Shown here piece by piece: positions 2,209 to 14,304 of a stretch of DNA of 64,000 nt. Position 1 is the stretch's first letter; every line of letters begins with the position of its first letter. Both the position numbers and the translations under genes were made by a program. The notes beneath the pieces were generated by a model. That model ran no database searches, was not told the DNA's origin, and worked only from the letters and a program-made list of their open reading frames with translations. The stretch spans positions 960,001-1,024,000 of the forward strand of contig OY970208.1 in NCBI GenBank assembly GCA_963713865.1. Reading direction: 5' to 3'. This stretch comes from an uncultured candidate division Zixibacteria bacterium. Lineage in GTDB: Bacteria > Zixibacteria > MSB-5A5 > RBG-16-43-9.

Positions 2209-2276
2209 CCCGATAGATCCACCCTGTCATCAATGAGGATTAATTCTTTATCTTGACCTTTTGTCTCAAATCACTT

Positions 2277-2301
2277 AGGGGTGGAGATTATCTCCACCCC
2301 T
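2277..2301. terminator. Hairpin between convergent genes, probable terminator
   Basis: AGGGGTGGAGA-TTA-TCTCCACCCCT followed by a T-rich tract. Confidence 0.6.
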
Positions 2302-2349
2302 TTCTTATTATAGTTAGATTTCTTTACTGTTTTGGAGATATTATCTTTT

Positions 2350-4443
2350 TCAAGAACAACTCCAGCAATCTGTATTACAAGTTGGAGCTGGACCTCCTTT
2401 GAAAAGATAGTTGATTAGCCAAACTACATCCGCCACACTTACATTACAATCGCCATTGGTATCCCCCTTCCATAAAGGCTCAAATCCAGGACCTAACTTA
2501 AAGAGATAATTTATCAGGTAAACTATATCTGCAAGCGATACTTTACCATCACAATTAACATCTCCGGAAACCGGGAGTATTATATGATGCTGGGCAAAAA
2601 TCTTTATCAAATGCTCTTTCTCCCAGTCTTCCAGTCCAGGATAGCTCTGCCAGTAGTTCATAAACTCAATCATATTCTGAGGTTTATTGGTTTTAAAGAT
2701 ATCAAAAATCTTTGCAAATTCATCATGTAATTCATAATATTCTGTATTACTACGTTCGTTTGGATAATCAATATTTGCATCCTCCATATCATACCAGGCA
2801 CTTGCCACTGCTCCTTCTACTATAGAGCCATCAACATTTTTCCCATCAGGTCCTGCCCACCAATCGTTGTTTTCAAGGTCCCAACCATTATCCTTTAAAT
2901 ATCTGGCTTTATCTCCTGTTATAACACAACTTAAATATTCAGCCCACCCCTCATCAAAGGCACAGGAGGGGGTGGAGGTGGTATTAAAAGAATGGATAAG
3001 GGGACATCCCATGGTATGCATTGAGTTGAGATTCCAGGCTTTTACCTGGATAAGATGGGCATATTCATGAATCGGAGCATATAATCTATACCCAAAATTA
3101 GGGGGACCCATACTTGTTAGATACATCCAGTATATCTGATACAGGGAATCATATGCGCTATATGCAAGACCGTTTATATTGTTGTAATCATACATGACCA
3201 GAACAGGAGGGGTGTCCCAGGGGTAAGGGGGGACTGTTTGGATTAAATATTTTGTTTCTTGTAGATAGTGATAGCTATAACAAGCTCTAGCGAACATAGT
3301 ATCTTGCTCTTCACGAGATTGCTCGTCTTTTACTAAATTAAAGGAGTTATCAGGTCCTAAAGTGTCAGTAGAGGTACATATCAGAGAGTCATTACCCCAG
3401 ATTTTAACAGCCAACGAGTTATCCTGGTTAACTAAATGGAATTTCACATAAATAGGATGCTCTACGCGGGGGAGAAAAGTCACGAAATACCCGGATCTAT
3501 CTGTATATAGAGATTCTGTAGCAAATAAGTAACCTGTTACTCCATCCCAGATTGAGACTAGAACATTTGGTAGGGAAACTATCTGAGGATAATAAGAATA
3601 GTCGGCATATTGGTCATCATAGTTCACATATTTCAATTCTCCTGAAACACAAACATCCTCACAATAGGAAGACATGGCACCAGCCAGGGGCCAGGATGGT
3701 TTGCTTATGGCTCCATACATAGATACTAACCTCATCCGGATGTAATAATAATCCACGCACTTCAACCAGTTAAGTGTTTTGGAAGTGTAGTCGCAGTCCA
3801 GGACTGAAGCCTCTCCTTCTATTATATTGTCATCATTCAATAAATCTGCGTTCCTGTTCCATTCTATCTTGTAACTTACACATTGAGTGTCAAAAACCGG
3901 GGTCCAGCTCACATCAATCTCTCTTTGACCTGTGCCAGTGTTTGCCCATACATATGCAGGCGGGTCTGGTGGAACATGATAACGCACCTTCAATGTCCAG
4001 GTATCCAGCGTGCCAGTTATACCTTGATCACAATCACTTATCTTCAACTTCCAATTCGCATTTGCCTTTAAACCAAAAAAGCTCCAGTCTTCAGTCTTAG
4101 AAAAGGTGGAGCCATGCACGCTCCCATAACTCCATAAAACCTCATAGTGCATTGTGTCATCATCATATTGCAATACCACCACTAAATCCCTGGACCAATT
4201 ATGTGAGACTGCAAAATAAATATCTATTGAAAGAACTATAGCCTCATCTGGAGCAAGAGTATTATTATAGCTCTCAACCTCATCTCCACATTCATTTTCT
4301 CCCGTACCATCTGGAATATATAAATAAGGTGAGCTGGTTACAGTAGTCGAGTCTTCATAGGCCTCAGCTAACTCATACCTGAAGAAAGGCAGGATAAAAA
4401 ATAAAAGCAGAAAAACCCTTAAATAAGCTTTAATATTCACCAA
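2350..4443 (-). CDS. Secreted zinc metalloprotease (gluzincin-like) with P-domain-like, FN3-like and C-terminal dockerin-like domains
   Basis: Signal peptide; NWKLKISD...GTLDTWTL P-domain-like; HEYAH then EGWAEY; GDVNCDG..LINYLFK repeat x2. Confidence 0.7.
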   Translation of the reverse strand: MVNIKAYLRVFLLLFFILPFFRYELAEAYEDSTTVTSSPYLYIPDGTGENECGDEVESYNNTLAPDEAIVLSIDIYFAVSHNWSRDLVVVLQYDDDTMHYEVLWSYGSVHGSTFSKTEDWSFFGLKANANWKLKISDCDQGITGTLDTWTLKVRYHVPPDPPAYVWANTGTGQREIDVSWTPVFDTQCVSYKIEWNRNADLLNDDNIIEGEASVLDCDYTSKTLNWLKCVDYYYIRMRLVSMYGAISKPSWPLAGAMSSYCEDVCVSGELKYVNYDDQYADYSYYPQIVSLPNVLVSIWDGVTGYLFATESLYTDRSGYFVTFLPRVEHPIYVKFHLVNQDNSLAVKIWGNDSLICTSTDTLGPDNSFNLVKDEQSREEQDTMFARACYSYHYLQETKYLIQTVPPYPWDTPPVLVMYDYNNINGLAYSAYDSLYQIYWMYLTSMGPPNFGYRLYAPIHEYAHLIQVKAWNLNSMHTMGCPLIHSFNTTSTPSCAFDEGWAEYLSCVITGDKARYLKDNGWDLENNDWWAGPDGKNVDGSIVEGAVASAWYDMEDANIDYPNERSNTEYYELHDEFAKIFDIFKTNKPQNMIEFMNYWQSYPGLEDWEKEHLIKIFAQHHIILPVSGDVNCDGKVSLADIVYLINYLFKLGPGFEPLWKGDTNGDCNVSVADVVWLINYLFKGGPAPTCNTDCWSCS

Positions 4444-5512
4444 CTGTCACCCCTTTCTTCTTAAAATATTTAAAGAAGATTTTAGATTCTTTTTGAGTTC
4501 TAACTATATATAATAATTTACCATCTTTATCCAAATGATACCGAGCAAGGAATCTATCATTCTTTGGCTTAACCCCCTCTCTTGGCGGCTCCTCAATACC
4601 AAGAGCAAAGCTATTCGCACCTAACCTTGGAGGCACTACCTTGAAAGAACCCTCCAGGGTGTCGCCTTTGGTAATCGGTCCGGGTAGCATTTTAAAGCTA
4701 ATTTTACCATCACGAGTTACTATTTTCATCCCATCTGGATAATAATCCTTGGTTATAACCCGGTAATAAACCGTTGAAGTATCATTTAAAGAAAGAGGCG
4801 GAGTTATATGAAATAGATTGGTTACATACTGACCATTGAATTTTACATAAATCTCCCTATCAGTTATAAGAGGATGGAAAGGTAAATCGCTTTCTGGGAA
4901 ACCACCTCTATTTGAAAGGTGAACCAGCTCTCCGTTCTCATCAAAACCAAAGTAGAAACAGGGTTCTACTGTTTCCAATTGAATACATATTCCATGCCTC
5001 CCTATTTCCCTGGGTACTATAGTGATACTTCCTTCATAAATATCACCTTTCTTAATGGGACGATGCCATTTAGGCTCAAGTTCTGTAAAATCCATATTTT
5101 CTTCACTGGCATGTACTATAAAACGAGGGTCTTGGTTATAAGGGGGTTGTTGAGCTTCTTCAGGTCTTATATCCCAGTTCCAGCAGGATTTTAATTTTAC
5201 ATAAATCTTAGAGGGTTTATTCAATTCTGGTAAAGGTTCAAACCTAATCTGCCAAGCAAAAGAAGCCCTTCCATCACAGGAATCCAAAGGTTGACCCCAT
5301 CTATATTCAAAAACCTGTCTTATCTCCTGTTTGGGTTCCTCATGTGTTGTATCTACACCCGGTGGTAGAGATGGCTTTGGCCATTTCTTAGTAATTATAT
5401 CTTTAGCTGTCTTACCATCAGAAAAGATCGTCCCAGGTAAAAAATAATATCCTACAAGAATAACTACCAATAAAATACTTAAACCCAAACCTAATCTTTT
5501 CTTGTTGTTCAT
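4430..5512 (-). CDS. Hypothetical exported protein, paralogue 3 (two internal beta-rich repeats)
   Basis: N-terminal hydrophobic anchor; C-terminal half nearly identical to 5544-6623. Confidence 0.8.
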   Translation of the reverse strand: MNNKKRLGLGLSILLVVILVGYYFLPGTIFSDGKTAKDIITKKWPKPSLPPGVDTTHEEPKQEIRQVFEYRWGQPLDSCDGRASFAWQIRFEPLPELNKPSKIYVKLKSCWNWDIRPEEAQQPPYNQDPRFIVHASEENMDFTELEPKWHRPIKKGDIYEGSITIVPREIGRHGICIQLETVEPCFYFGFDENGELVHLSNRGGFPESDLPFHPLITDREIYVKFNGQYVTNLFHITPPLSLNDTSTVYYRVITKDYYPDGMKIVTRDGKISFKMLPGPITKGDTLEGSFKVVPPRLGANSFALGIEEPPREGVKPKNDRFLARYHLDKDGKLLYIVRTQKESKIFFKYFKKKGVTVGEY

Positions 5513-5543
5513 AAATATTCCTCCTTAAACTCTTAAATAAGTT

Positions 5544-6623
5544 TTAATATTCACCAACTGTCACCCCTTTCTTCTTATAATATTCATAGAAGATTTTAGA
5601 TTCTTTTTGAGTTTTAACTATATATAATAATCTACCATCTTTATCTAAATGATAGAGAGCAATGAATCTATCATTCTTTGGCTTAACTCCCTCTCTTGGC
5701 GGCTCCTCAATATCAAGAGCAAAACCATTCGCACCTGACCTTGAAGGCACTACCTTAAAAGAGCCCTCCAGGGTATCGCCCTTGGTAATCGGGCCGGGTA
5801 ACATCTTAAAGCTAATTTTACCATCACGAGTTACTATTTTCATCCCATCTGGATAATAATCTTTGGTTATAACCCGGTAATAAACCGTTGAAGTATCGTT
5901 CAAAGAAAGAGGTGGAGTTATATGAAAAAGATTGGTAACGTAAGTTCCACCAAATTTTACGTAAATCTCATTCTCAGTTATAGCTGGATGGTTAGGTAAA
6001 TCATTCTTTGGGAAAATACCTCTATCTGAGAGATGAACTAGTTCCCCCTTTTCATTAAAACCAAAATTTAAGAAGGTCTCAAACCTTCCTCCTATTATGT
6101 GTAATCTGTATTTACCAATCTCTCTCGGTACAATGGCGATTGTTCCATCATAGATTTCACCCTTTTTAATAGGATATAGCCACCTGGGTTCAACAAATGG
6201 AGTATAGTCCAGAGCATTTTCATCAGAAGATACTCTAAAGAGAGGACCCTCGTTATAAATGGGATGAGATCCAACACCACTGGTCTTCATTTCCCAGCAG
6301 GATTTTAACTTCACATAAATATTGGATGGTTTATTTACCTGGGGTAAAGGGTCAAACTTTATCTGCCATAAATAGGAGTCCCATCCATCACATGAGTCCA
6401 CAGGCAGATCCCATTTATACTCAAAAACCTGTTTTATCTCTTGCTTGGGTGGCTCGTTTTTAGTTTTTGGTATATTTAATTTTTTTATTTTCTTATATAC
6501 CTCATCAACGGCTGGCTGCCCATTAGTAAAAACAAAGTTAGGCAAATACCAGAAAAACCCAAGCAAAATTACCAGCAAAACACTTAGGCTTAAACCTAAT
6601 CTTTTCTTGTTATTCATAACCAT
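5544..6623 (-). CDS. Hypothetical exported protein, paralogue 2
   Basis: Same MNNKKRLGL start and GVTVGEY end as 4430-5512; GGAGG RBS. Confidence 0.8.
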   Translation of the reverse strand: MVMNNKKRLGLSLSVLLVILLGFFWYLPNFVFTNGQPAVDEVYKKIKKLNIPKTKNEPPKQEIKQVFEYKWDLPVDSCDGWDSYLWQIKFDPLPQVNKPSNIYVKLKSCWEMKTSGVGSHPIYNEGPLFRVSSDENALDYTPFVEPRWLYPIKKGEIYDGTIAIVPREIGKYRLHIIGGRFETFLNFGFNEKGELVHLSDRGIFPKNDLPNHPAITENEIYVKFGGTYVTNLFHITPPLSLNDTSTVYYRVITKDYYPDGMKIVTRDGKISFKMLPGPITKGDTLEGSFKVVPSRSGANGFALDIEEPPREGVKPKNDRFIALYHLDKDGRLLYIVKTQKESKIFYEYYKKKGVTVGEY

Positions 6624-6638
6624 TCCTCCTTTACTCCT

Positions 6639-7568
6639 CTATTTTTTCTGAGGTGTTTCTTTGTCTATAGATTTAAGTTTGCCTTGTTCGTCCAGATTAA
6701 AGATAACCTTAAAATCCTTTTTTCCAAAAGAAATTTTATCAAGTTCGGGTGCTTGCTCTACCTGTAGAATAAAATAACCATCTCCGGTCTTTGTAGGTAT
6801 AATCTGGAAATAACTTTTATAGTGATAAACCGAACCTATGGTATCTGAAGCTCTATCTGGTAGTTCTATTATATCCAATCCATCAGAACCGATTAGAGAA
6901 ATCTTCAAATCCTGCGGAATCTCATCCTTTATTACAATATGATACAAGACCAGAGAGGTATCATTTAAAGAAGGGGGAGGGTTTATCCTGAAACTGTTGG
7001 TAAAGCTGGCTTCTTCAAATTTTAATATAATCGCATTATTTTCAGGGATGGATTTTCTTCCCTGAAGAGAGACTAACTTCCCGGATTCATCAAAACTGAA
7101 AAAGACATGAAAAACCGATTCAGTCTTCTCTGCGCAGGCGGAACTGGTGTTAATTTTAATCCCGATTACATAATCACCGGGCTTTTCTGCTTTAAAACTG
7201 AATTTACCCTCATAAATATCTCCCTTCTTAACTGGAGGATTCCACCCTGGCTCTATTTCGCTACATTCAAAGGCTCCTGTTACATCCCCTTTATGATAGG
7301 CTCTCAAAATACTTATTACTGGCGTCTGATAGCAGAACTGGTGTGCTTGTAATTTAAGAATAACGGTTGTGGTTTTACCTAATTCAGGTAAAGATTCAAA
7401 GGTTATCAAAGCTGAATAAGGGTAAAGCTTAATCTCATCTTCGTTAAACTGAAGTCCCCATTGATAATTAATCGTATGTTCGATATTTTCTTCTCCATTA
7501 AGCAAGTTAGAAGAAAATAGCCATAGGTTAATCGTTAATAACATAAATCCATATTTAAACATTTTCAT
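6639..7568 (-). CDS. Hypothetical exported protein, divergent paralogue 1
   Basis: Signal peptide; shares KKGDIYEG, F.FDE.G.LV.L, PP.SLNDTS.V.Y, LD..G.L motifs with the two downstream genes; GGAGGT RBS. Confidence 0.8.
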   Translation of the reverse strand: MKMFKYGFMLLTINLWLFSSNLLNGEENIEHTINYQWGLQFNEDEIKLYPYSALITFESLPELGKTTTVILKLQAHQFCYQTPVISILRAYHKGDVTGAFECSEIEPGWNPPVKKGDIYEGKFSFKAEKPGDYVIGIKINTSSACAEKTESVFHVFFSFDESGKLVSLQGRKSIPENNAIILKFEEASFTNSFRINPPPSLNDTSLVLYHIVIKDEIPQDLKISLIGSDGLDIIELPDRASDTIGSVYHYKSYFQIIPTKTGDGYFILQVEQAPELDKISFGKKDFKVIFNLDEQGKLKSIDKETPQKK

Positions 7569-7709
7569 GTCACCTCCAGATTAATCTTTCCCAATCTTGA
7601 ACTTTTAAGCATACTTTCTTTTCTTCCTCCGCCCGGGCCCACGTTACCCGGGCGGATGATTGGAACTACAAGAAAGAAGTAAAAGAGGTAAAAACCTGCT
7701 AAGGTGTGT

Positions 7710-7725
7710 ATCAAAAAATATGCCA
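7710..7725 (-). promoter_or_regulatory. Putative sigma54 -24/-12 promoter
   Basis: Minus strand TGGCAT-ATTTT-TTGAT versus consensus TGGCAC-N5-TTGCW; correct spacing, -12 GC is GA. Confidence 0.55.
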
Positions 7726-7833
7726 GCTTAATAAAAACATCGCTCTCTCGATACTAACTCTTTGTGTATAAAAAAGATGGGGTGAAAAGAATTGGAAATC
7801 TCAGATGTAAAAATATGGAGAATAAAAAAATCT

Positions 7834-7938
7834 ATTTCAAGTATGAAATGACTAATTAATAAAAATTCAGATAATGTGTTGTTTAAATTAGACTTATGAG
7901 TATTTCAAGAATGAAATGGGATTTTGCAGAAATGAAAT
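7834..7938. promoter_or_regulatory. Putative enhancer (UAS) palindromes ATTTCA-N4-TGAAAT
   Basis: Perfect copies at 7834-7849 and 7902-7917; degenerate copy TTTGCA-N4-TGAAAT at 7923-7938. Confidence 0.6.
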
Positions 7939-7939
7939 A

Positions 7940-10309
7940 CTAAAGGGGGATATTATAAAACTTTATCTTCCGGCATAAAGTTGCCTCAGAGATTCCTAAA
8001 AACTCAGATGCTAATTTCCGATTACCGTTATATTTTTTCAGAGTGTCTATAATCTCTTTCTTCTCCAGCTCCTGTATTTTACTATTTAATGTTAGTGATT
8101 GGTTGTCTGGTTCATTGTGATATTTATTTGAAGTTTCTAAAAACTTCTTTTCAGGGAAAAGCACAATACTTTTTACTTCATTCTCTAACTCCCTTATATT
8201 CCCGGGCCAATCATATTCCTGGAGCTTTTCTATTAGTTTCGGATATCCTAAAAGCTTCAGGTTATCCTCAGCTATTCCAGTTTCCTTCAGAAAATACACT
8301 ATCAACAACGGTATATCCTCTTTCCTCTCCCTCAAAGGCTGGAGTTTTAAGTTGAACGTATTAAGCCGAAAATAGAGGTCTTTTCTGAAGAATTCTTTTG
8401 AGACTCTCTCCATAAGATTACGGGAAGTGGAAACGATAATCCTTACATCTATCTTTTTAGGCTTGGTCTCACCTATCCGGGTAATCTCTTTATCCTCAAT
8501 TGCCCTTAGTAATTTTACCTGAGTGGATAAAGGTATCTCTGCTACCTCATCTATATACAAAGTCCCGCCAGCCGCCTCCTCAAATAACCCTACACTGCTC
8601 TCGTCAGCACCGGTATAAGCTCCTTTAATATGTCCGAAGAGTGCATTCTCTAACAAGGTCTCTGGAACCGTAGAACATTGAGCTACTACAAACTTCTTAT
8701 CTTTTCTTTTACTCTCATAATGAATACATTTCGCTAACAAATCTTTTCCTGTGCCAGTCTCTCCCTCTATTAGAATGGTCATATCTGTATCTTTTATCCT
8801 CTTTGCTTCTTCTAGTATATCCAGCATCTTTCTATTCCGGGTGATGATATTAGAAAAGGTATATTTCTTTTGTGAATCAGGTACCCCAAGCTCCCCGCTA
8901 AACTTTGTTAGCTTATTTCTAAACTCCCTAACCAGACTCAAATCTCTTTCCTCTTTTAATTCAAAAAATACCTTTTCCGCATCTTTTAGATAAAGACCCG
9001 CACTCACATATTCCTGCTTCTCGAAAAATAGATTAAATTGGGCTAATTTGATTAATCCAAGATGGTATTTCGATTCTAAATTTTTGAAGATGTCCTCAGC
9101 CAGTCCCAAATACATTATCCGCTCATAATAATCATAACAGTCAGATCTTCCTGCTTCTAAATAGGTTTTGGCTAATTCATATTTAGCGTTTATCTCTTGA
9201 AAGATATTCAGACTCCTGTTGAAATACTCCTGAGCTTTTTCCTTATCACCTCTAAATGTATAAATCTGCCCAAGAATACGATAACAGGCAGACTCCTCAA
9301 CTCTTTCTCCTAAAGATTTACTAACCCTTAGAGCTTTTTGACAAGAGCTAAATGCCTGGTCGTATTCTTTCTTAGTTACCTGCAAATCTGCCAGGAGACG
9401 ATAAGTCTGGCTTATCATATCCCCTTCTGGGGCTCTTTCATCCATTATCTCAAAGACTTTTTTATAATGATTTTCTGCAGATTGATGGTCTCCCTGAATA
9501 AAAGCTAATTCACCAGAGTACTCATGATAAATTGATAGCTCACGCACACAGTTGTTCTTCTGAATCAGAGATAAAGATTCTTCATAGAATTTTTTTGCTT
9601 TTGAAAACTCTCTTTTCAGAAAATATACGTAACCCAAGGAGAGCAAACCCCTGCTTAGATTGAGTTCATCTTTTGCCTGTCGATTCAATCCTATGTTTAA
9701 AAGTAAACTCCTCTCTGCCTTTTTCCAGTTACCTATCTTTAAAAACATCTGACCTAAATTACCATATAAAAAAGCTTTTTTTTCTGGCTGTCCTGCTTTA
9801 TCAACAAAACTAAGAGCATCTTGAAGATATTCTATAGATTTAGAATAACTTCCCTTAATGTATTCAACATTAGAAAGCCGACTAAGACAATTAATGACCC
9901 CTTTTAAATCATTAATTCTTCTATAACCAGTTGAGGCGTCCCTTATCTCTGTCTCTGCAGATTTAAGATTGCCAAGAGCTATATAAATTAAGCCCAGGAG
10001 GAACTGAGCCTGGGATATTTTTAAATCATTATGTAGTTCAATGAATATGGAAATAGCTCTTTTACCTGTTTCCAATGCCTCCTCATAACTCCCGAAATGT
10101 CGTAAAACTTTAGCCGCAGAATAATAAAACTGCCCCATCTCTTCTGTAAATGGTTCTTCTGGCAATGCAAAAGAACCTAACTTTCCCGTGCTCTGAACCT
10201 CCCTGATCTGAGCTAAGGCTGTTATATAATCATTATCCTCAATCAGCTTTTCTATTTCCTCAAGCTGATGAGTTAAATCCACCTTTGAGTTCTGGAAATT
10301 ATCTTTCAT
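7940..10309 (-). CDS. TPR-repeat sigma54-dependent transcriptional activator (TPR + AAA+ + Fis HTH)
   Basis: About 470 aa of TPR helices; GETGTGKD Walker A, GAYTGA loop, LYIDEV Walker B, WPGNIRELEN, C-terminal HTH; no receiver domain. Confidence 0.9.
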   Translation of the reverse strand: MKDNFQNSKVDLTHQLEEIEKLIEDNDYITALAQIREVQSTGKLGSFALPEEPFTEEMGQFYYSAAKVLRHFGSYEEALETGKRAISIFIELHNDLKISQAQFLLGLIYIALGNLKSAETEIRDASTGYRRINDLKGVINCLSRLSNVEYIKGSYSKSIEYLQDALSFVDKAGQPEKKAFLYGNLGQMFLKIGNWKKAERSLLLNIGLNRQAKDELNLSRGLLSLGYVYFLKREFSKAKKFYEESLSLIQKNNCVRELSIYHEYSGELAFIQGDHQSAENHYKKVFEIMDERAPEGDMISQTYRLLADLQVTKKEYDQAFSSCQKALRVSKSLGERVEESACYRILGQIYTFRGDKEKAQEYFNRSLNIFQEINAKYELAKTYLEAGRSDCYDYYERIMYLGLAEDIFKNLESKYHLGLIKLAQFNLFFEKQEYVSAGLYLKDAEKVFFELKEERDLSLVREFRNKLTKFSGELGVPDSQKKYTFSNIITRNRKMLDILEEAKRIKDTDMTILIEGETGTGKDLLAKCIHYESKRKDKKFVVAQCSTVPETLLENALFGHIKGAYTGADESSVGLFEEAAGGTLYIDEVAEIPLSTQVKLLRAIEDKEITRIGETKPKKIDVRIIVSTSRNLMERVSKEFFRKDLYFRLNTFNLKLQPLRERKEDIPLLIVYFLKETGIAEDNLKLLGYPKLIEKLQEYDWPGNIRELENEVKSIVLFPEKKFLETSNKYHNEPDNQSLTLNSKIQELEKKEIIDTLKKYNGNRKLASEFLGISEATLCRKIKFYNIPL

Positions 10310-10607
10310 CTTGTTTTTTAACTAAGTTAGTAGAATTTTTCACTGGTTCTTCTGTTTTAAGTTGCGCCTGATTTGATGATTTATCAATAATTATCAGTGC
10401 TGGAAGATTTTGAGTATTTGTAATAAGGAGGAATTTTATTATTGAAGGAGAATTATCAATAGTTTGCGGAGTAACAGGTACTTTCTCACAATCTTGCCAT
10501 GGATCTCCATAAAGTTTAGCTCTTCTTGCATCCACTGCCCAGGTAGAGGTGATAAAAAACAAAAGAAGCAACCCCAACAAAAGCCCTAAAATAAGTCTCT
10601 TTTTCAT
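10299..10607 (-). CDS. Small secreted protein (102 aa) overlapping the activator start
   Basis: MKKR + hydrophobic core + TWA cleavage-like site; AGGAG RBS; 11-bp overlap with next gene. Confidence 0.75.
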   Translation of the reverse strand: MKKRLILGLLLGLLLLFFITSTWAVDARRAKLYGDPWQDCEKVPVTPQTIDNSPSIIKFLLITNTQNLPALIIIDKSSNQAQLKTEEPVKNSTNLVKKQDER

Positions 10608-10660
10608 TGTTTTCTCCTTTCAGGTAAGTAATTAAACAAATCTAAGGTTATTACGGACTT

Positions 10661-10688
10661 AAAATAAGATATAAAAAGGATTTGTCAA
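10661..10688 (-). promoter_or_regulatory. Putative sigma70-type promoter for the small protein/activator pair
   Basis: Minus strand TTGACA-N16-TATTTT. Confidence 0.4.
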
Positions 10689-10796
10689 GGGGAAAATTAA
10701 AATTTTATGATATTTATGGTTAAAATTGAATAAAGGGTGTTAGAATGGTCAGGATATTATACTTTTAGATATTAGACCTGATAGTAAATATATTTT

Positions 10797-12203
10797 TTAT
10801 TCAGATTCTTCCCTTATCCTTATGTTATATTTTCTCATCAGGGCTTGAAAGTTAGTTCTCTGCATACTGACCTCTTTAGCTGAGCGGGTGACGTTCCAGT
10901 CATTCCGGTTCAAGGCTTCAAGGATGAACATCTTCTCAATATTCTCCACTGCGCTTTCCCGGAGATACTTTTTCATCGTTTTCAGCTCTTCGGAGTTTTT
11001 CGGGATTTGGGTATCCATTCCTGCACCCTGTCCCAAAATAGTAGCTGGAAGGTACTCTGAGATAATGGTTTTACTTTCAGCCATTACTACTGCTCTTTCT
11101 ATCACATTTTCCAATTGTCTGACATTTCCGGGCCATTCATAATTTATGAGCTTGTTCATAGCCTCTACGGAGATACTCTTGATCTCCTTATTCATTTCCT
11201 GATTGAACTTCTTGAGAAAATGATAAGCCAAAATCGGGATATCATCTTTTCTTACCCTTAAAGGGGGTATAGTAATTGAAACCACATTCAACCTGTAATA
11301 AAGGTCTTCTCTGAACTTCTTTTCATTGACCAAGTTCTCCAGATTCTTATTAGTAGCCACGATAAACCGTAAATCTACCTTTTTGGGCTGAATCCCTCCT
11401 ACTGGCAGAAACTCCTGTTCCTGGATAACTCTTAAGAGCTTCCCCTGGATAATCGGATTAATATCCCCGATCTCATCCAAAAATACCGAGCCCCCGTCTG
11501 CTACTTCAAAAAGACCCGGTTTAGTAACTACCGCCCCGGTGAACGAGCCTTTGATATGACCGAAAAGCTCGCTTTCTAAAAGGTCCTGGGATAACACCCC
11601 ACAATCTACCGTGAAAAAGGGTTTGTTTTTTCTTTGACTGTTAAAATGAATAGCCCTGGCAATTAACTCTTTGCCGGTTCCACTCTCACCGCAGATCAAT
11701 ACGGTGCTATCAGTCGGGGCAACCTTGCGAATGAATTTGAAAACCTCCTGTATTTTAGGGCTATTACCTACGATATTTTCAAAGGAATATTTAGCCTCTA
11801 ATTCTTTATGCAGGTAGATATTTTCAAAAATCAGTTTTTTTTTCTCCAGAGCTTTCTCCACCACCACGATCAGTTCTTCCGGGGTGAAAGGTTTCGGGAT
11901 ATAGTCTAAGGCACCCATCTTCATTGCCTGGACCGCAGTCTGGACAGTGGAATATCCGGTGATTATAATTACGATTATCTCCGGGTCCTTCTCCTTTATC
12001 TTGGTTAAAAGCTCCATCCCATCCATACCTGGCATCTTCAGATCAGTAATCACTATATCGAAAGATTCCTGATTGAGCTTTTCTAAAGCCTCTTCTCCGG
12101 AAAGAGCGATTCCTACCTCATAACCCTCAGGTGAAAGTATTCTCTGGACGCTTTTACAGATCACTACCTCATCATCCACTACCAGGATATTACCTTTTGC
12201 CAT
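10797..12203 (-). CDS. NtrC/AtoC-family sigma54 response regulator
   Basis: Receiver domain (VVDD, TDLKMP, KPF), [27 protein letters not shown]. Confidence 0.92.
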   Translation of the reverse strand: MAKGNILVVDDEVVICKSVQRILSPEGYEVGIALSGEEALEKLNQESFDIVITDLKMPGMDGMELLTKIKEKDPEIIVIIITGYSTVQTAVQAMKMGALDYIPKPFTPEELIVVVEKALEKKKLIFENIYLHKELEAKYSFENIVGNSPKIQEVFKFIRKVAPTDSTVLICGESGTGKELIARAIHFNSQRKNKPFFTVDCGVLSQDLLESELFGHIKGSFTGAVVTKPGLFEVADGGSVFLDEIGDINPIIQGKLLRVIQEQEFLPVGGIQPKKVDLRFIVATNKNLENLVNEKKFREDLYYRLNVVSITIPPLRVRKDDIPILAYHFLKKFNQEMNKEIKSISVEAMNKLINYEWPGNVRQLENVIERAVVMAESKTIISEYLPATILGQGAGMDTQIPKNSEELKTMKKYLRESAVENIEKMFILEALNRNDWNVTRSAKEVSMQRTNFQALMRKYNIRIREESE

Positions 12204-12235
12204 CTTCTATTTTAATCTCCTTAATTAAGACTTTA

Positions 12236-13795
12236 TTATTCTAAAGGCAATTTAACTGTAAAGGTCGAGCCTTTTCCTAACTGGCTTTTTACTTCTAAGT
12301 ATCCGTTATGTCGTTGAATTATCCCGTAACTTACCGATAGACCTAAACCAGTTCCCCTTCCAGACCTTTTGGTAGTAAAGAAGGGGTCAAAGATCTTGGG
12401 TAAGTTCTCCTCGGAGATTCCTGAACCGGTGTCCGTGAAGCTTATCTTTACAAACTTCTTCTCAGGATCGAAATCTGATCCTATGGTCAGAGTACCACCC
12501 TGAGACATAGCCTCAGCTGCATTTAAGATTATATTCACAAATACCTGTTTTATCTGGTCAACATCCATCATCACTGCAGGCAGATTTTCATTTAGCTTTT
12601 TTTCAACGCTTATATTAAGGAAAAGCGCTTGATTTTCCAGCAGAGAAAGGGTCTCCTCCACCACTTTATTTATATCTGCACGGGTTTTACTTGGCTCAGT
12701 CTGCCGTGCAAATTCTAAAAGACCTTTCACGATTTTCCTGCAGCGGGTGGTTTCGCTAACTATCACCTCTAAATCCTCTTTCATCTGCGGATTCTCTTTA
12801 TGTTCTTTCAAAAGCAGAGAGCTGTAAGTCAAAATACCCGTCAGGGGGTTATTTATCTCATGAGCAATCCCGGCCGCCAACTTACCTAAGGAAGCTAATT
12901 TTTCAGACTGGATTAGTTGCTCCTGGGTTTTCTTGAGCTCCTTTGTCTTTTCCTCCACCCTTTTCTCTAAAACCCGGCTCCATTCTTCTAATTCCTCTTG
13001 AGCTCCGGATAAATCCTTGGTCATCCGGTTGAAAGAGTTTGCCAGCTCACCGATCTCATCTTTAGAATCTATTTTCAAAGTATATTCTAAATCCCCGGAA
13101 GCAATCTTCTTGGTCTCATCCACTAAGGCTCTAACCGGACGGCTAACCGACCGCTTAACAAACATGGCGATAGTTCCAGAAATACCTAAAAATAGCACTA
13201 CTGCAAAAGCTAACATTTTGTTCTGATTTCCCTTTATCTGGTGATCTACGTCTGCTAAGGACATCCCGATATCTAAAACCCCTAAGACCTTTTGAGTAGA
13301 AGGATGAGCATGGCAGTCTGCAGTATAACAATCCTTTTCATTATAGATAGGATTTATCATCCCCAGGACCCGGTGTCCCTCTTTAGATTTATAGATCCGA
13401 TTCCTCTCCGGAGTAGGGAGTTTTTCCAGAGGTTTTTCAGCCGAATGGCAGGCATAACAGGCTTCAGCCTTTTTATCCACCATCGAGCCGATATCCTTTT
13501 TATCCGTGGAGAACATTATCTCTCCCTCTTTATTAAAAATCCTGATCTTCTCAATCCCTTCCTGTTCTCCTATGGTTTCGATGATCTTATGCACTGCCTC
13601 GCTCTCATATTTTAACATATCATAGCGCGTGCTTCTTTTAACCGTTTCGCTTATGCGGTTAGCACTCCGCAGAACCTCACTCGTCAACTGCCCTTTCTGA
13701 GAATTTATGCTCACATAAGCGAATATCCCCAGAGCTATAATTAGAATAGACCCCACAAATAAGATTAGTTTAAACCCTAAGCGATTATACCACAT
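12236..13795 (-). CDS. Membrane sensor histidine kinase with periplasmic heme-c-type motifs and HAMP domain
   Basis: Two TM helices; CYACH and CYTADCH in the sensor domain; AHEINNPL H-box; GTGLGL G2 box; start codon choice uncertain. Confidence 0.88.
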   Translation of the reverse strand: MWYNRLGFKLILFVGSILIIALGIFAYVSINSQKGQLTSEVLRSANRISETVKRSTRYDMLKYESEAVHKIIETIGEQEGIEKIRIFNKEGEIMFSTDKKDIGSMVDKKAEACYACHSAEKPLEKLPTPERNRIYKSKEGHRVLGMINPIYNEKDCYTADCHAHPSTQKVLGVLDIGMSLADVDHQIKGNQNKMLAFAVVLFLGISGTIAMFVKRSVSRPVRALVDETKKIASGDLEYTLKIDSKDEIGELANSFNRMTKDLSGAQEELEEWSRVLEKRVEEKTKELKKTQEQLIQSEKLASLGKLAAGIAHEINNPLTGILTYSSLLLKEHKENPQMKEDLEVIVSETTRCRKIVKGLLEFARQTEPSKTRADINKVVEETLSLLENQALFLNISVEKKLNENLPAVMMDVDQIKQVFVNIILNAAEAMSQGGTLTIGSDFDPEKKFVKISFTDTGSGISEENLPKIFDPFFTTKRSGRGTGLGLSVSYGIIQRHNGYLEVKSQLGKGSTFTVKLPLE

Positions 13796-14304
13796 ACAAA
13801 AAAACTCCACAAGTTAAGCATTAATATAAAATCTCAGGAGTAAAATGTCAAATCTTTAACCTGAAAGATTATACTGGAATAAAAAAGATATATTTGTTTT
13901 GTTTAGGGAGCGCATCCAAAGAGATGCGGCATTGACCTCGTCTTTGGCGGAGCACTCAATAAAGTTTTTAGCTCGATAAATCGAGCAACTTCAGTCCTGT
14001 ACTCTAAATCCACTTACCTATTCCCATCTCCCCTCCACGAATCGCAAAGCTTTTAACGGCTTGTAGGAGAGAGGTCACCCTCTCTGCATCCATATCTACC
14101 AGAGCGAGGAGACCTCGCCGCTGCTATTTTTTTTCATAGATAATTTTTATAGAATAATCCTATGGATGGTTTATTAAAAATAATATAGTAATTGTTTCTG
14201 ATAATACGTTATATTTTACTAAAGTGAGGTTTTTATTGAAAATTGAACGGTGCAGATTTTAGAATGACCGAGAATTATCTGAAATTCAATAGGGAGATAA
14301 TTTT

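Follow-up and report, generated by a model that had tools for sequence, protein, structure and literature searches.

The stretch of DNA analysed here (the window) comprises 64,000 nucleotides (nt) from an uncultured Zixibacteria bacterium, positions 960,001 to 1,024,000 of contig OY970208.1 in assembly GCA_963713865.1; the host genome of 2.72 Mb lies on one contig and is 94% complete. Between window positions 2350 and 10607, with every feature on the minus strand, lies a cassette in which the gene for a small exported protein, hereafter the mini-protein, precedes and overlaps the gene for a sigma54 activator with a tetratricopeptide repeat (TPR) sensor. Beyond the activator come two copies of a palindrome, a -24/-12-type promoter, a structured leader and four co-oriented genes for exported proteins. 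Apart from the leader, this layout of genes and sites had been proposed in a first-pass annotation made from the letters of the DNA, and it is borne out: the open reading frames (ORFs), the 11-nt overlap, the domains, the palindromes and the four downstream genes all lie where that annotation had placed them. Moreover, comparison of homologous loci indicates that the cassette is a real, self-contained regulatory module, found phylum-wide across the Zixibacteria.

The mini-protein gene (10299..10607) encodes 102 amino acids (aa). As judged from the ORF and from alignments, the protein begins with MKKR, runs through a lysine-rich N-terminal segment and a hydrophobic core to a TWA|VD site, and continues with a GDPW motif, a hydrophobic hairpin-like block and a basic tail; GDPW stands 10 residues past TWA|VD, or 13 past the -3/-1 site picked by our script. 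The stop of this ORF overlaps the start of the activator ORF (7940..10309) by 11 nt, and across loci at most a few nt separate the mini-protein stop from the activator start where the two do not overlap. On the 5' side of the small ORF, at 10661..10688, the sequence TTGACA-16-TATTTT has the top promoter-like score of the region (10/12) and is a candidate sigma70-like promoter by consensus match only. In two other loci (L014 and L045) the mini-protein and the activator seemed at first to be fused; this was rejected, since the upstream frame is simply open and the mini-protein lies in another frame.

How constant is this pairing? A scan of one genome for each species, based on an alignment of the TPR region of relatives, gave 52 loci, all in Zixibacteria-type metagenome-assembled genomes (MAGs). 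Two of these lie at contig ends, and in 50 of the 50 assessable ones a signal-peptide ORF of 85-124 aa stands directly upstream on the same strand, 48 having been found by script and two (L041 and L055) by inspection. Another 22 places, more distant and from other orders of the class, included three that repeat loci already in the set; the 19 new ones likewise all carry a signal-peptide ORF directly upstream, which at L085, L090, L091, L107 and L108 became apparent only after ORFs had been re-listed at 40 aa. In total the two genes are neighbours in 69/69 assessable loci; the comparative test that the first-pass annotation had suggested, whether homologous activators always have a small signal-peptide ORF upstream, is thereby passed. 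Of 121 genomes sampled from the phylum, 104 have a match to the sensor region at E <= 1e-40; such genomes contain one to seven, and copies are most numerous in the window's order. The activator form of ~980 aa is common and single-copy, and the form of ~790-820 aa, which includes the window's, is expanded. The record titles of L031, L033, L035 and other MAGs that carry the module say 'uncultured Ignavibacteria bacterium'; genome search groups them with the Zixibacteria, and the titles are probably label errors.

The two members of the pair have also diverged together. Mean pairwise identity is 0.21 for the mini-protein as against 0.41 for the sensor, that is, the mini-protein evolves faster, with about twice the divergence, and its divergence tracks that of the sensor (r = 0.78; 0/999 permutations as high). 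Correlated divergence of this kind is expected of linked genes; it shows that the two genes are passed on and duplicated together.

Lengths of the 53 aligned mini-proteins range from 85 to 124 aa (median 103). By our own heuristic for signal peptides, all 53 have a Sec-type signal, in which a basic N-region is followed by a hydrophobic core and by small residues at the -3/-1 site. The first-pass annotation had pointed to a conserved motif around GDPW. This holds for [HD]PW in 38/53 of the aligned proteins, with close variants in the rest, and in 15/19 of the distant loci, the remaining four having RTW, DPF or no clear motif. Counted by first match, the 53 divide into HPW (30), DPW (8), HP[DE]Q (5), HTW (4), RTW (2) and one each of SPW, HEW and RPDQ, with RPEQ in L023. 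The [H/D]-P-W motif lies 6-32 residues (median 16.5) past the crudely predicted cleavage site and is followed by a linker, either acidic or rich in Gly/Pro, then by a hydrophobic block resembling a beta-hairpin or an amphipathic segment, and finally by a tail that is net basic in 45/53. Conservation is confined to two blocks, the post-signal motif and the mid-protein hydrophobic block; the tails at the C-terminus cannot be aligned. A topology with two membrane spans was considered and rejected as the general case, since the second hydrophobic block exceeds 1.6 (19-residue Kyte-Doolittle mean) in only 11/53. The mini-protein belongs to no Pfam or NCBIfam family, and a profile search of 5.8 billion sequences returned 76 relatives, none with a Pfam domain, all named ones being 'hypothetical protein' and all named organisms Zixibacteria. 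In the subclade with GHPWGE a gene for a rhomboid intramembrane protease (L048:4108-4935; Pfam on L048 only) is adjacent to and divergent from the mini-protein gene, and genes of ~276 aa occupy the corresponding position in L040, L043, L049, L050 and L052. This may be mere synteny.

The 789-aa activator (relatives are 735-1051 aa) has three parts. Residues 1 to ~470, encoded at 8900-10309, are TPRs (Pfam TPR_12 in five stretches, E 4.8e-38; the TPR_MalT model also matches, E 9e-20). Sigma54_activat (PF00158) follows at residues 488-654 (8348-8848; E 1.3e-62) together with an AAA lid and a GAYTGA loop, and a Fis-type helix-turn-helix (HTH), matched by HTH_8, lies at residues 746-783 (7961-8074; E 1.1e-9). 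No curated NCBIfam equivalog reaches its cut-off for this protein. In terms of sequence the protein qualifies as a sigma54 enhancer-binding protein: it combines an AAA+ domain that has a GAFTGA-type loop with a C-terminal HTH, the genome has one rpoN (Sigma54_DBD match, E 1.5e-55), and an upstream activating sequence and a -24/-12 promoter accompany it. The genome has 18 strong sigma54-activator matches, among which the 789-aa ORF is the only frame so long. A second TPR activator in the same genome, of the long class (G000:C1 ~1206270-1209467; L094, L100), appears as two overlapping ORFs of 502 aa (TPR) and 465 aa (AAA+/HTH), its relatives being single ORFs of ~975-990 aa. The gene may be split, or a frameshift or an error of assembly may account for the two frames. 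The mini-protein that goes with it is intact, with 101 aa and EHPWEE.

AlphaFold models residues 1-470 with 24 helices at a predicted local distance difference test (pLDDT) score of 93. In a profile search of the PDB the sensor matches Pins/LGN at 3e-34, kinesin light chain at ~1e-14 and Rap proteins at 1e-7 to 1e-9. The nearest solved relatives are TPR superhelices that hold a peptide in extended form: LGN/Pins in complex with Inscuteable, NuMA and Frmpd, TONSOKU bound to the H3 tail, and APPBP2 bound to a degron. LGN/Pins and kinesin light chain are the best matches of the sensor in sequence and fold, and in the mini-protein motif acidic residues come after a Trp; kinesin light chain TPRs, according to PMC6214655, read Trp- or Tyr-acidic linear motifs. 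These are, however, eukaryotic scaffolds, and the likeness is limited to fold and repeat type.

The wiring of activator to operon is best seen in comparison. Directly past the activator stop, ATTTCA-N4-TGAAAT occurs twice, 68 nt apart, at 7902..7917 and 7834..7849; the genome contains four such sites in all, and two of the reversed-pattern control. In an intergenic alignment of three orthologues the same two positions hold ATTTCA..TGAAAT in the window, TCACCA..TGGTGA in L031 and TCTCTCA..TGAGAGA in L003, so that both half-sites have changed, in a compensated manner, in both copies of the palindrome. Other paralogues have repeated palindromes of their own at the corresponding place. At 7710..7725, 214 nt past the activator stop, lies TGGCATATTTTTTGAT, a sigma54-type promoter (TGGCAT-N5-TTGAT) with a non-consensus -12 element, which aligns with the orthologues. 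By itself this site is not significant, 38/100 shuffles yielding at least one match in the 64-kb window. Among 44 loci, however, a -24/-12 match of at least 10/12 on the same strand and within 600 nt past the activator stop is found in 21, as against 1/44 on the opposite strand and 0/44 in coding sequence. The best-scoring site, whatever its score, falls at +204 to +230 in 15/44, and L033 has at the very offset of the window's, +214, a full 12/12 match (TGGCACG-N4-TTGCA).

Between promoter and operon lies a structured leader (7569..7700) with a predicted fold of -48.2 kcal/mol (z -3.8), in which the Shine-Dalgarno sequence is paired and an 11-bp GC hairpin (~7628-7656) stands between CT-rich and AG-rich arms. 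It is kept in L031 and L003 despite their different cargo, with one pair of the GC hairpin changed on both sides in a compensatory manner; nothing in the intergenic region comes near any Rfam gathering score. In the genome G003 a block of ~450 nt has been duplicated, which runs from the final ~100 nt of the activator gene across the two palindromes and the promoter and includes the leader. The copy (L099, G003:C7:138202-141292, compared with L096/L031) lies 10 kb from the original, ahead of a gene for a 454-aa exported protein, and looks like regulon growth by enhancer-promoter duplication. Taken together, the palindromes, the promoter offset, the compensated changes and this block copy are strong comparative evidence that activator, enhancer and promoter form one functional unit, in keeping with the sigma54 promoter and enhancer that the first-pass annotation had read here. 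Among the 20 runs that cover part of the stretch, no RNA run is listed.

The cargo of the window's operon consists of proteins of 309 aa (6639..7568), 359 aa (5544..6623), 360 aa (4430..5512) and 697 aa (2350..4443), all with hydrophobic N-termini. The first three are paralogues (68% identity between the 359- and 360-aa proteins; 27% identity, E 1e-28, for the 309-aa one), and the 309- and 359-aa proteins fall into no known family in Pfam or NCBIfam. No homologue of the three occurs beside other activators in the 52 loci, so that the idea of a conserved cargo is rejected. Pairs of homologues of the 309- and 359-aa proteins do occur in L110 (G005:C127), L111 and L112 (G003), there behind a sigma70-like TTGACA promoter, and the G005 pair is divergent from the orthologue of a histidine kinase and NtrC-type regulator that neighbour the window's cassette. 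The 697-aa protein has a beta-sandwich N-domain, a HExxH...EGWAE region and a C-terminal dockerin (Dockerin_1, E 9.5e-10). In 13/13 homologues HEYAH...EGWAE is invariant; Pfam, NCBIfam, and PDB sequence and profile searches with the protein and its family returned the dockerin only. We take HExxH...EGWAE to resemble the gluzincin-type peptidase motif, and the pattern is suggestive of a putative gluzincin-type peptidase. That the operon ends in a metalloprotease, as had been claimed, is backed by the invariant motif, and family models recognise the dockerin only. A model of the 697-aa protein built with its 13 homologues (mean pLDDT 47) is too poor for a fold search, and best scores of 0.76 in the ESM Atlas for the 697- and 359-aa proteins are uninformative. 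The dockerin-coding stretch (2384-2565) matches dozens of places in each related genome, which indicates that dockerin-bearing exported proteins are abundant in the family. The operon would end at a terminator-like GC hairpin (2277..2301), which lies between convergent genes and which the scan placed on the plus strand.

Elsewhere the cargo varies from locus to locus, nearly all downstream genes encoding signal-peptide proteins. Among 67 co-oriented downstream proteins the families seen most often are PD40 beta-propellers (9), dockerins (5), DPPIV_N (5), CarboxypepD_reg (4), subtilases (3), Amidase_3 (3) and outer-membrane beta-barrels (3), so that the exported, protease-type output read in the window recurs at other loci. 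Long-form modules in six other genomes (L101-L104, L108 and L109) have their cargo in common: a ligase like LplA/B, a SusC-like TonB-dependent receptor of ~1130 aa, a protein of ~330 aa that resembles PorV/FadL, and a large lipoprotein (~720-900 aa).

For the cassette in its entirety (2209..10787, 8.6 kb) no counterpart was found in two genomes of the same genus. Their sequences match its flanks, 2-2208 and 10788-13897, at 88-94% identity and contain nothing matching 2209-10787 except dockerin and AAA+ fragments. GC content is 0.35-0.38 within the cassette and 0.40-0.42 in the flanks. Orthologues occur in two genomes of other genera of the family, at ~70% DNA identity. By this comparison the window's cassette is accessory. 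Directly upstream of it on the minus strand (10797-13810) lies a gene for a histidine kinase (sCache/HAMP/HisKA), together with one for an NtrC-type response-regulator activator; both are 88-91% conserved in the same-genus genomes that lack the cassette.

How might such a cassette work? We propose that the sigma70-type promoter would transcribe the translationally coupled pair, yielding the exported mini-protein of ~100 aa and the cytoplasmic activator. The activator would bind the two copies of its own palindrome just past its stop codon and remodel sigma54-RNA polymerase at the -24/-12 promoter ~214 nt past that stop. The promoter would then drive, via the structured leader, whatever exported-protein operon lies downstream, in this case three paralogous proteins and a dockerin-bearing putative zinc peptidase. 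As to the input, the mini-protein would be exported by Sec and its signal peptide cleaved; extracytoplasmic proteolysis would free the N-terminal block ending in [H/D]-P-W-acidic; and the fragment would be taken up again, an OPT-family peptide transporter being a candidate route. It would then bind, stretched out, along the concave channel of the TPR superhelix, switching the AAA+ domain between an inactive and a hexameric state. Every one of the paralogous cassettes would on this view have a signal and a receptor private to it. We consider the signal-receptor reading of the pair plausible, and a cassette whose input consists of export, processing, uptake and TPR binding is our best explanation, to which we assign a probability of roughly 40%.

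This peptide-signal explanation takes up the analogy drawn in the first-pass annotation with the RRNPP systems, which stands as an analogy of function only. RRNPP signalling belongs to the Bacillota and includes Rap-Phr, NprR-NprX, PlcR-PapR and AimR-AimP. As in those systems, the gene for a cytoplasmic TPR receptor lies beside that for a small precursor exported by Sec, one genome may hold several pairs that have diverged, the smaller partner changes quickly and secreted proteases are among the outputs. The passages of PMC10075063 on the subject give a five-point signature (a propeptide of 10-100 aa, a Sec signal, a receptor of ~250-500 aa, TPRs, and genes that are direct neighbours) and describe RRNPP_detector as applied to viruses and Firmicutes. 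The Sec signal on the small protein, the TPRs in the receptor and the direct adjacency of the genes are found here. The length of the mini-protein, 102 aa in the window and 103 aa as the family median, is at the upper limit of the propeptide range. On the other hand, the phylum is diderm, and the receptor has 789 aa rather than 250-500 and includes a sigma54 AAA+ motor and a Fis-type HTH. Its TPRs are of the LGN/kinesin light chain type rather than of the type seen in Rap, NprR, PlcR, PrgX or AimR, and no RRNPP receptor is among the Foldseek matches of the sensor model listed to rank 50. The precursor is encoded upstream of the receptor, its conserved block is placed N-terminally in the mature form with another conserved block behind it, and there is an OPT transporter instead of an Opp binding protein. 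Given the receptor size, the taxon, the lack of an Opp binding protein and the TPR kinship, the cassette may function like an RRNPP system without being a member.

Several observations weigh against the peptide-signal explanation and its sigma54 wiring. The peptide would have to re-cross the diderm envelope, and neither an Opp-type binding protein (PF00496) nor a PTR2 transporter was found in the window's own genome. This genome does have an OPT transporter, as well as CstA, and OPT occurs in 119 of the 121 genomes of the phylum, including the 17 without the activator; being near-universal, its presence discriminates nothing. The conserved block is N-terminal in the mature mini-protein, and for a simple propeptide the further hydrophobic block, likewise conserved, and the basic tail would be superfluous. 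In Phr, PapR and NprX the conserved block is C-terminal or internal. The window's -24/-12 site scores 9/12 to consensus, with TTGA instead of TTGC at -12, and the neighbouring NtrC-type activator (10797-12203) could be a second activator of the cassette promoter. Co-folding of TPR residues 1-470 (49-row alignment) with mini-protein residues 25-102, the mature part (53-row), gave scores of 0.25 and 0.22, under the 0.32 mark, and counts neither way.

Among the other explanations, the one that survives best assigns the mini-protein an envelope role, for instance as a membrane-associated helper, and no part in the input: it would only be co-transcribed, and the TPR region would sense some other protein or a small molecule, like the sensor domain of MalT. 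The TPR_MalT match fits this idea, as does the fact that two conserved blocks joined by a flexible linker resemble a small functional protein more than a propeptide. A helper of the envelope proteins does not, however, sit well with a cargo that changes between loci while the mini-protein stays with the activator in all of them. Likewise, when the G003 block was duplicated ahead of new cargo, the mini-protein did not go with it, which argues that the mini-protein belongs to the regulator and not to the cargo. We regard a mini-protein without a role in sensing as rather unlikely.

Another explanation places the sensing before export. Here the TPR region would capture its own mini-protein in the cytoplasm, Sec export would free or otherwise change the activator, and the operon would follow Sec capacity. 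The TPR chaperone IpgC with MxiE, and FlgM with sigma28, provide precedents. Translational coupling would mean 1:1 synthesis of the partners at one site, the conserved block lies right behind the signal peptide, the downstream genes nearly all encode signal-peptide proteins, a re-import step is unnecessary in a diderm, and no membrane transducer is encoded in the cassette. Yet a generic Sec-load signal leaves unexplained both the up to seven diverged paralogous pairs per genome and the separate enhancer sequence of each pair, and proteins with canonical cleavable signal peptides are usually exported fast. We think it quite unlikely that the activator responds to export in this way. We consider highly improbable a cis-acting monitor of secretion in the manner of SecM, MifM or VemP, in which export-sensitive translation arrest would set the translation of the activator, since, for all that a small ORF of ~100 aa (near the length of MifM) with an N-terminal export signal lies directly upstream of and overlaps the regulated gene, the C-terminal tail, the usual site of an arrest motif, is not conserved, the conserved motif lies ~55-70 residues before the stop, where the signal peptide would still be within the ribosome tunnel, and the downstream gene encodes a transcription factor rather than a localisation factor.

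It is useful to set the cassette beside other known arrangements. PspA-PspF, HrpV-HrpS and NifL-NifA are sigma54 activators set by a dedicated partner that is cytoplasmic or membrane-peripheral. The dedicated, often co-transcribed partner is common to these and to our case; here, however, a Sec signal peptide of the cleavable type marks the partner, and the activator retains a 470-aa sensor of its own. In the polysaccharide-utilisation loci of Bacteroidota, hybrid two-component systems and extracytoplasmic function (ECF) sigma/anti-sigma pairs with SusC serve as local regulators. The likeness lies in paralogous regulators, each of which sits by a separate locus for SusC-like receptors, lipoproteins and hydrolases that are secreted, and the difference in the signalling chemistry, which here involves no membrane sensor and has a sigma54 output. 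SecM, MifM and VemP, which act as monitoring substrates and are treated in PMC7897499 and PMC7793623, share with the mini-protein a small exported or membrane-targeted ORF immediately upstream of a regulated gene, and differ from the present case, where there is no conserved C-terminal arrest region and the next gene is a regulator rather than a Sec/YidC component.

A literature search on Zixibacteria, sigma-54 and tetratricopeptide, judged largely from titles and abstract openings, turned up no description of a pair of mini-protein and TPR-sigma54 activator. The first-pass annotation likewise knew of none, and the regulatory module is undescribed. One may go further and suppose that the Zixibacteria use, phylum-wide, a family of private pairs of peptide signal and receptor, of which a genome has one to seven, that are wired to sigma54 and whose receptors read a Trp-acidic motif as kinesin light chains do. 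Each channel would switch its own secreted-peptidase or TonB-dependent uptake locus, and this would be the first case in diderms of peptide signalling through cytoplasmic receptors of the Gram-positive kind. We hold this wider claim to be tentative and, on balance, doubtful.

What would the module mean for these bacteria? If the mini-protein is the ligand, then peptide signalling through cytoplasmic TPR receptors reaches beyond the Bacillota and their phages, and TPR domains would join the known sensory inputs of sigma54 activators, for which a 2025 survey of sigma54 regulons (PMC12316311) names, in its passages on activator inputs, CheY-like, PAS, GAF, PRD and V4R domains. If on the other hand the activator reads the departure of its own Sec substrate, the cassette would represent a new way to match the synthesis of envelope proteins to export capacity. 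Either way the device is compact, with sensor, enhancer, promoter and leader in 3.1 kb, and has been moved and duplicated as a unit in nature. The device could be rebuilt in E. coli, providing an experimental handle on an uncultured phylum.

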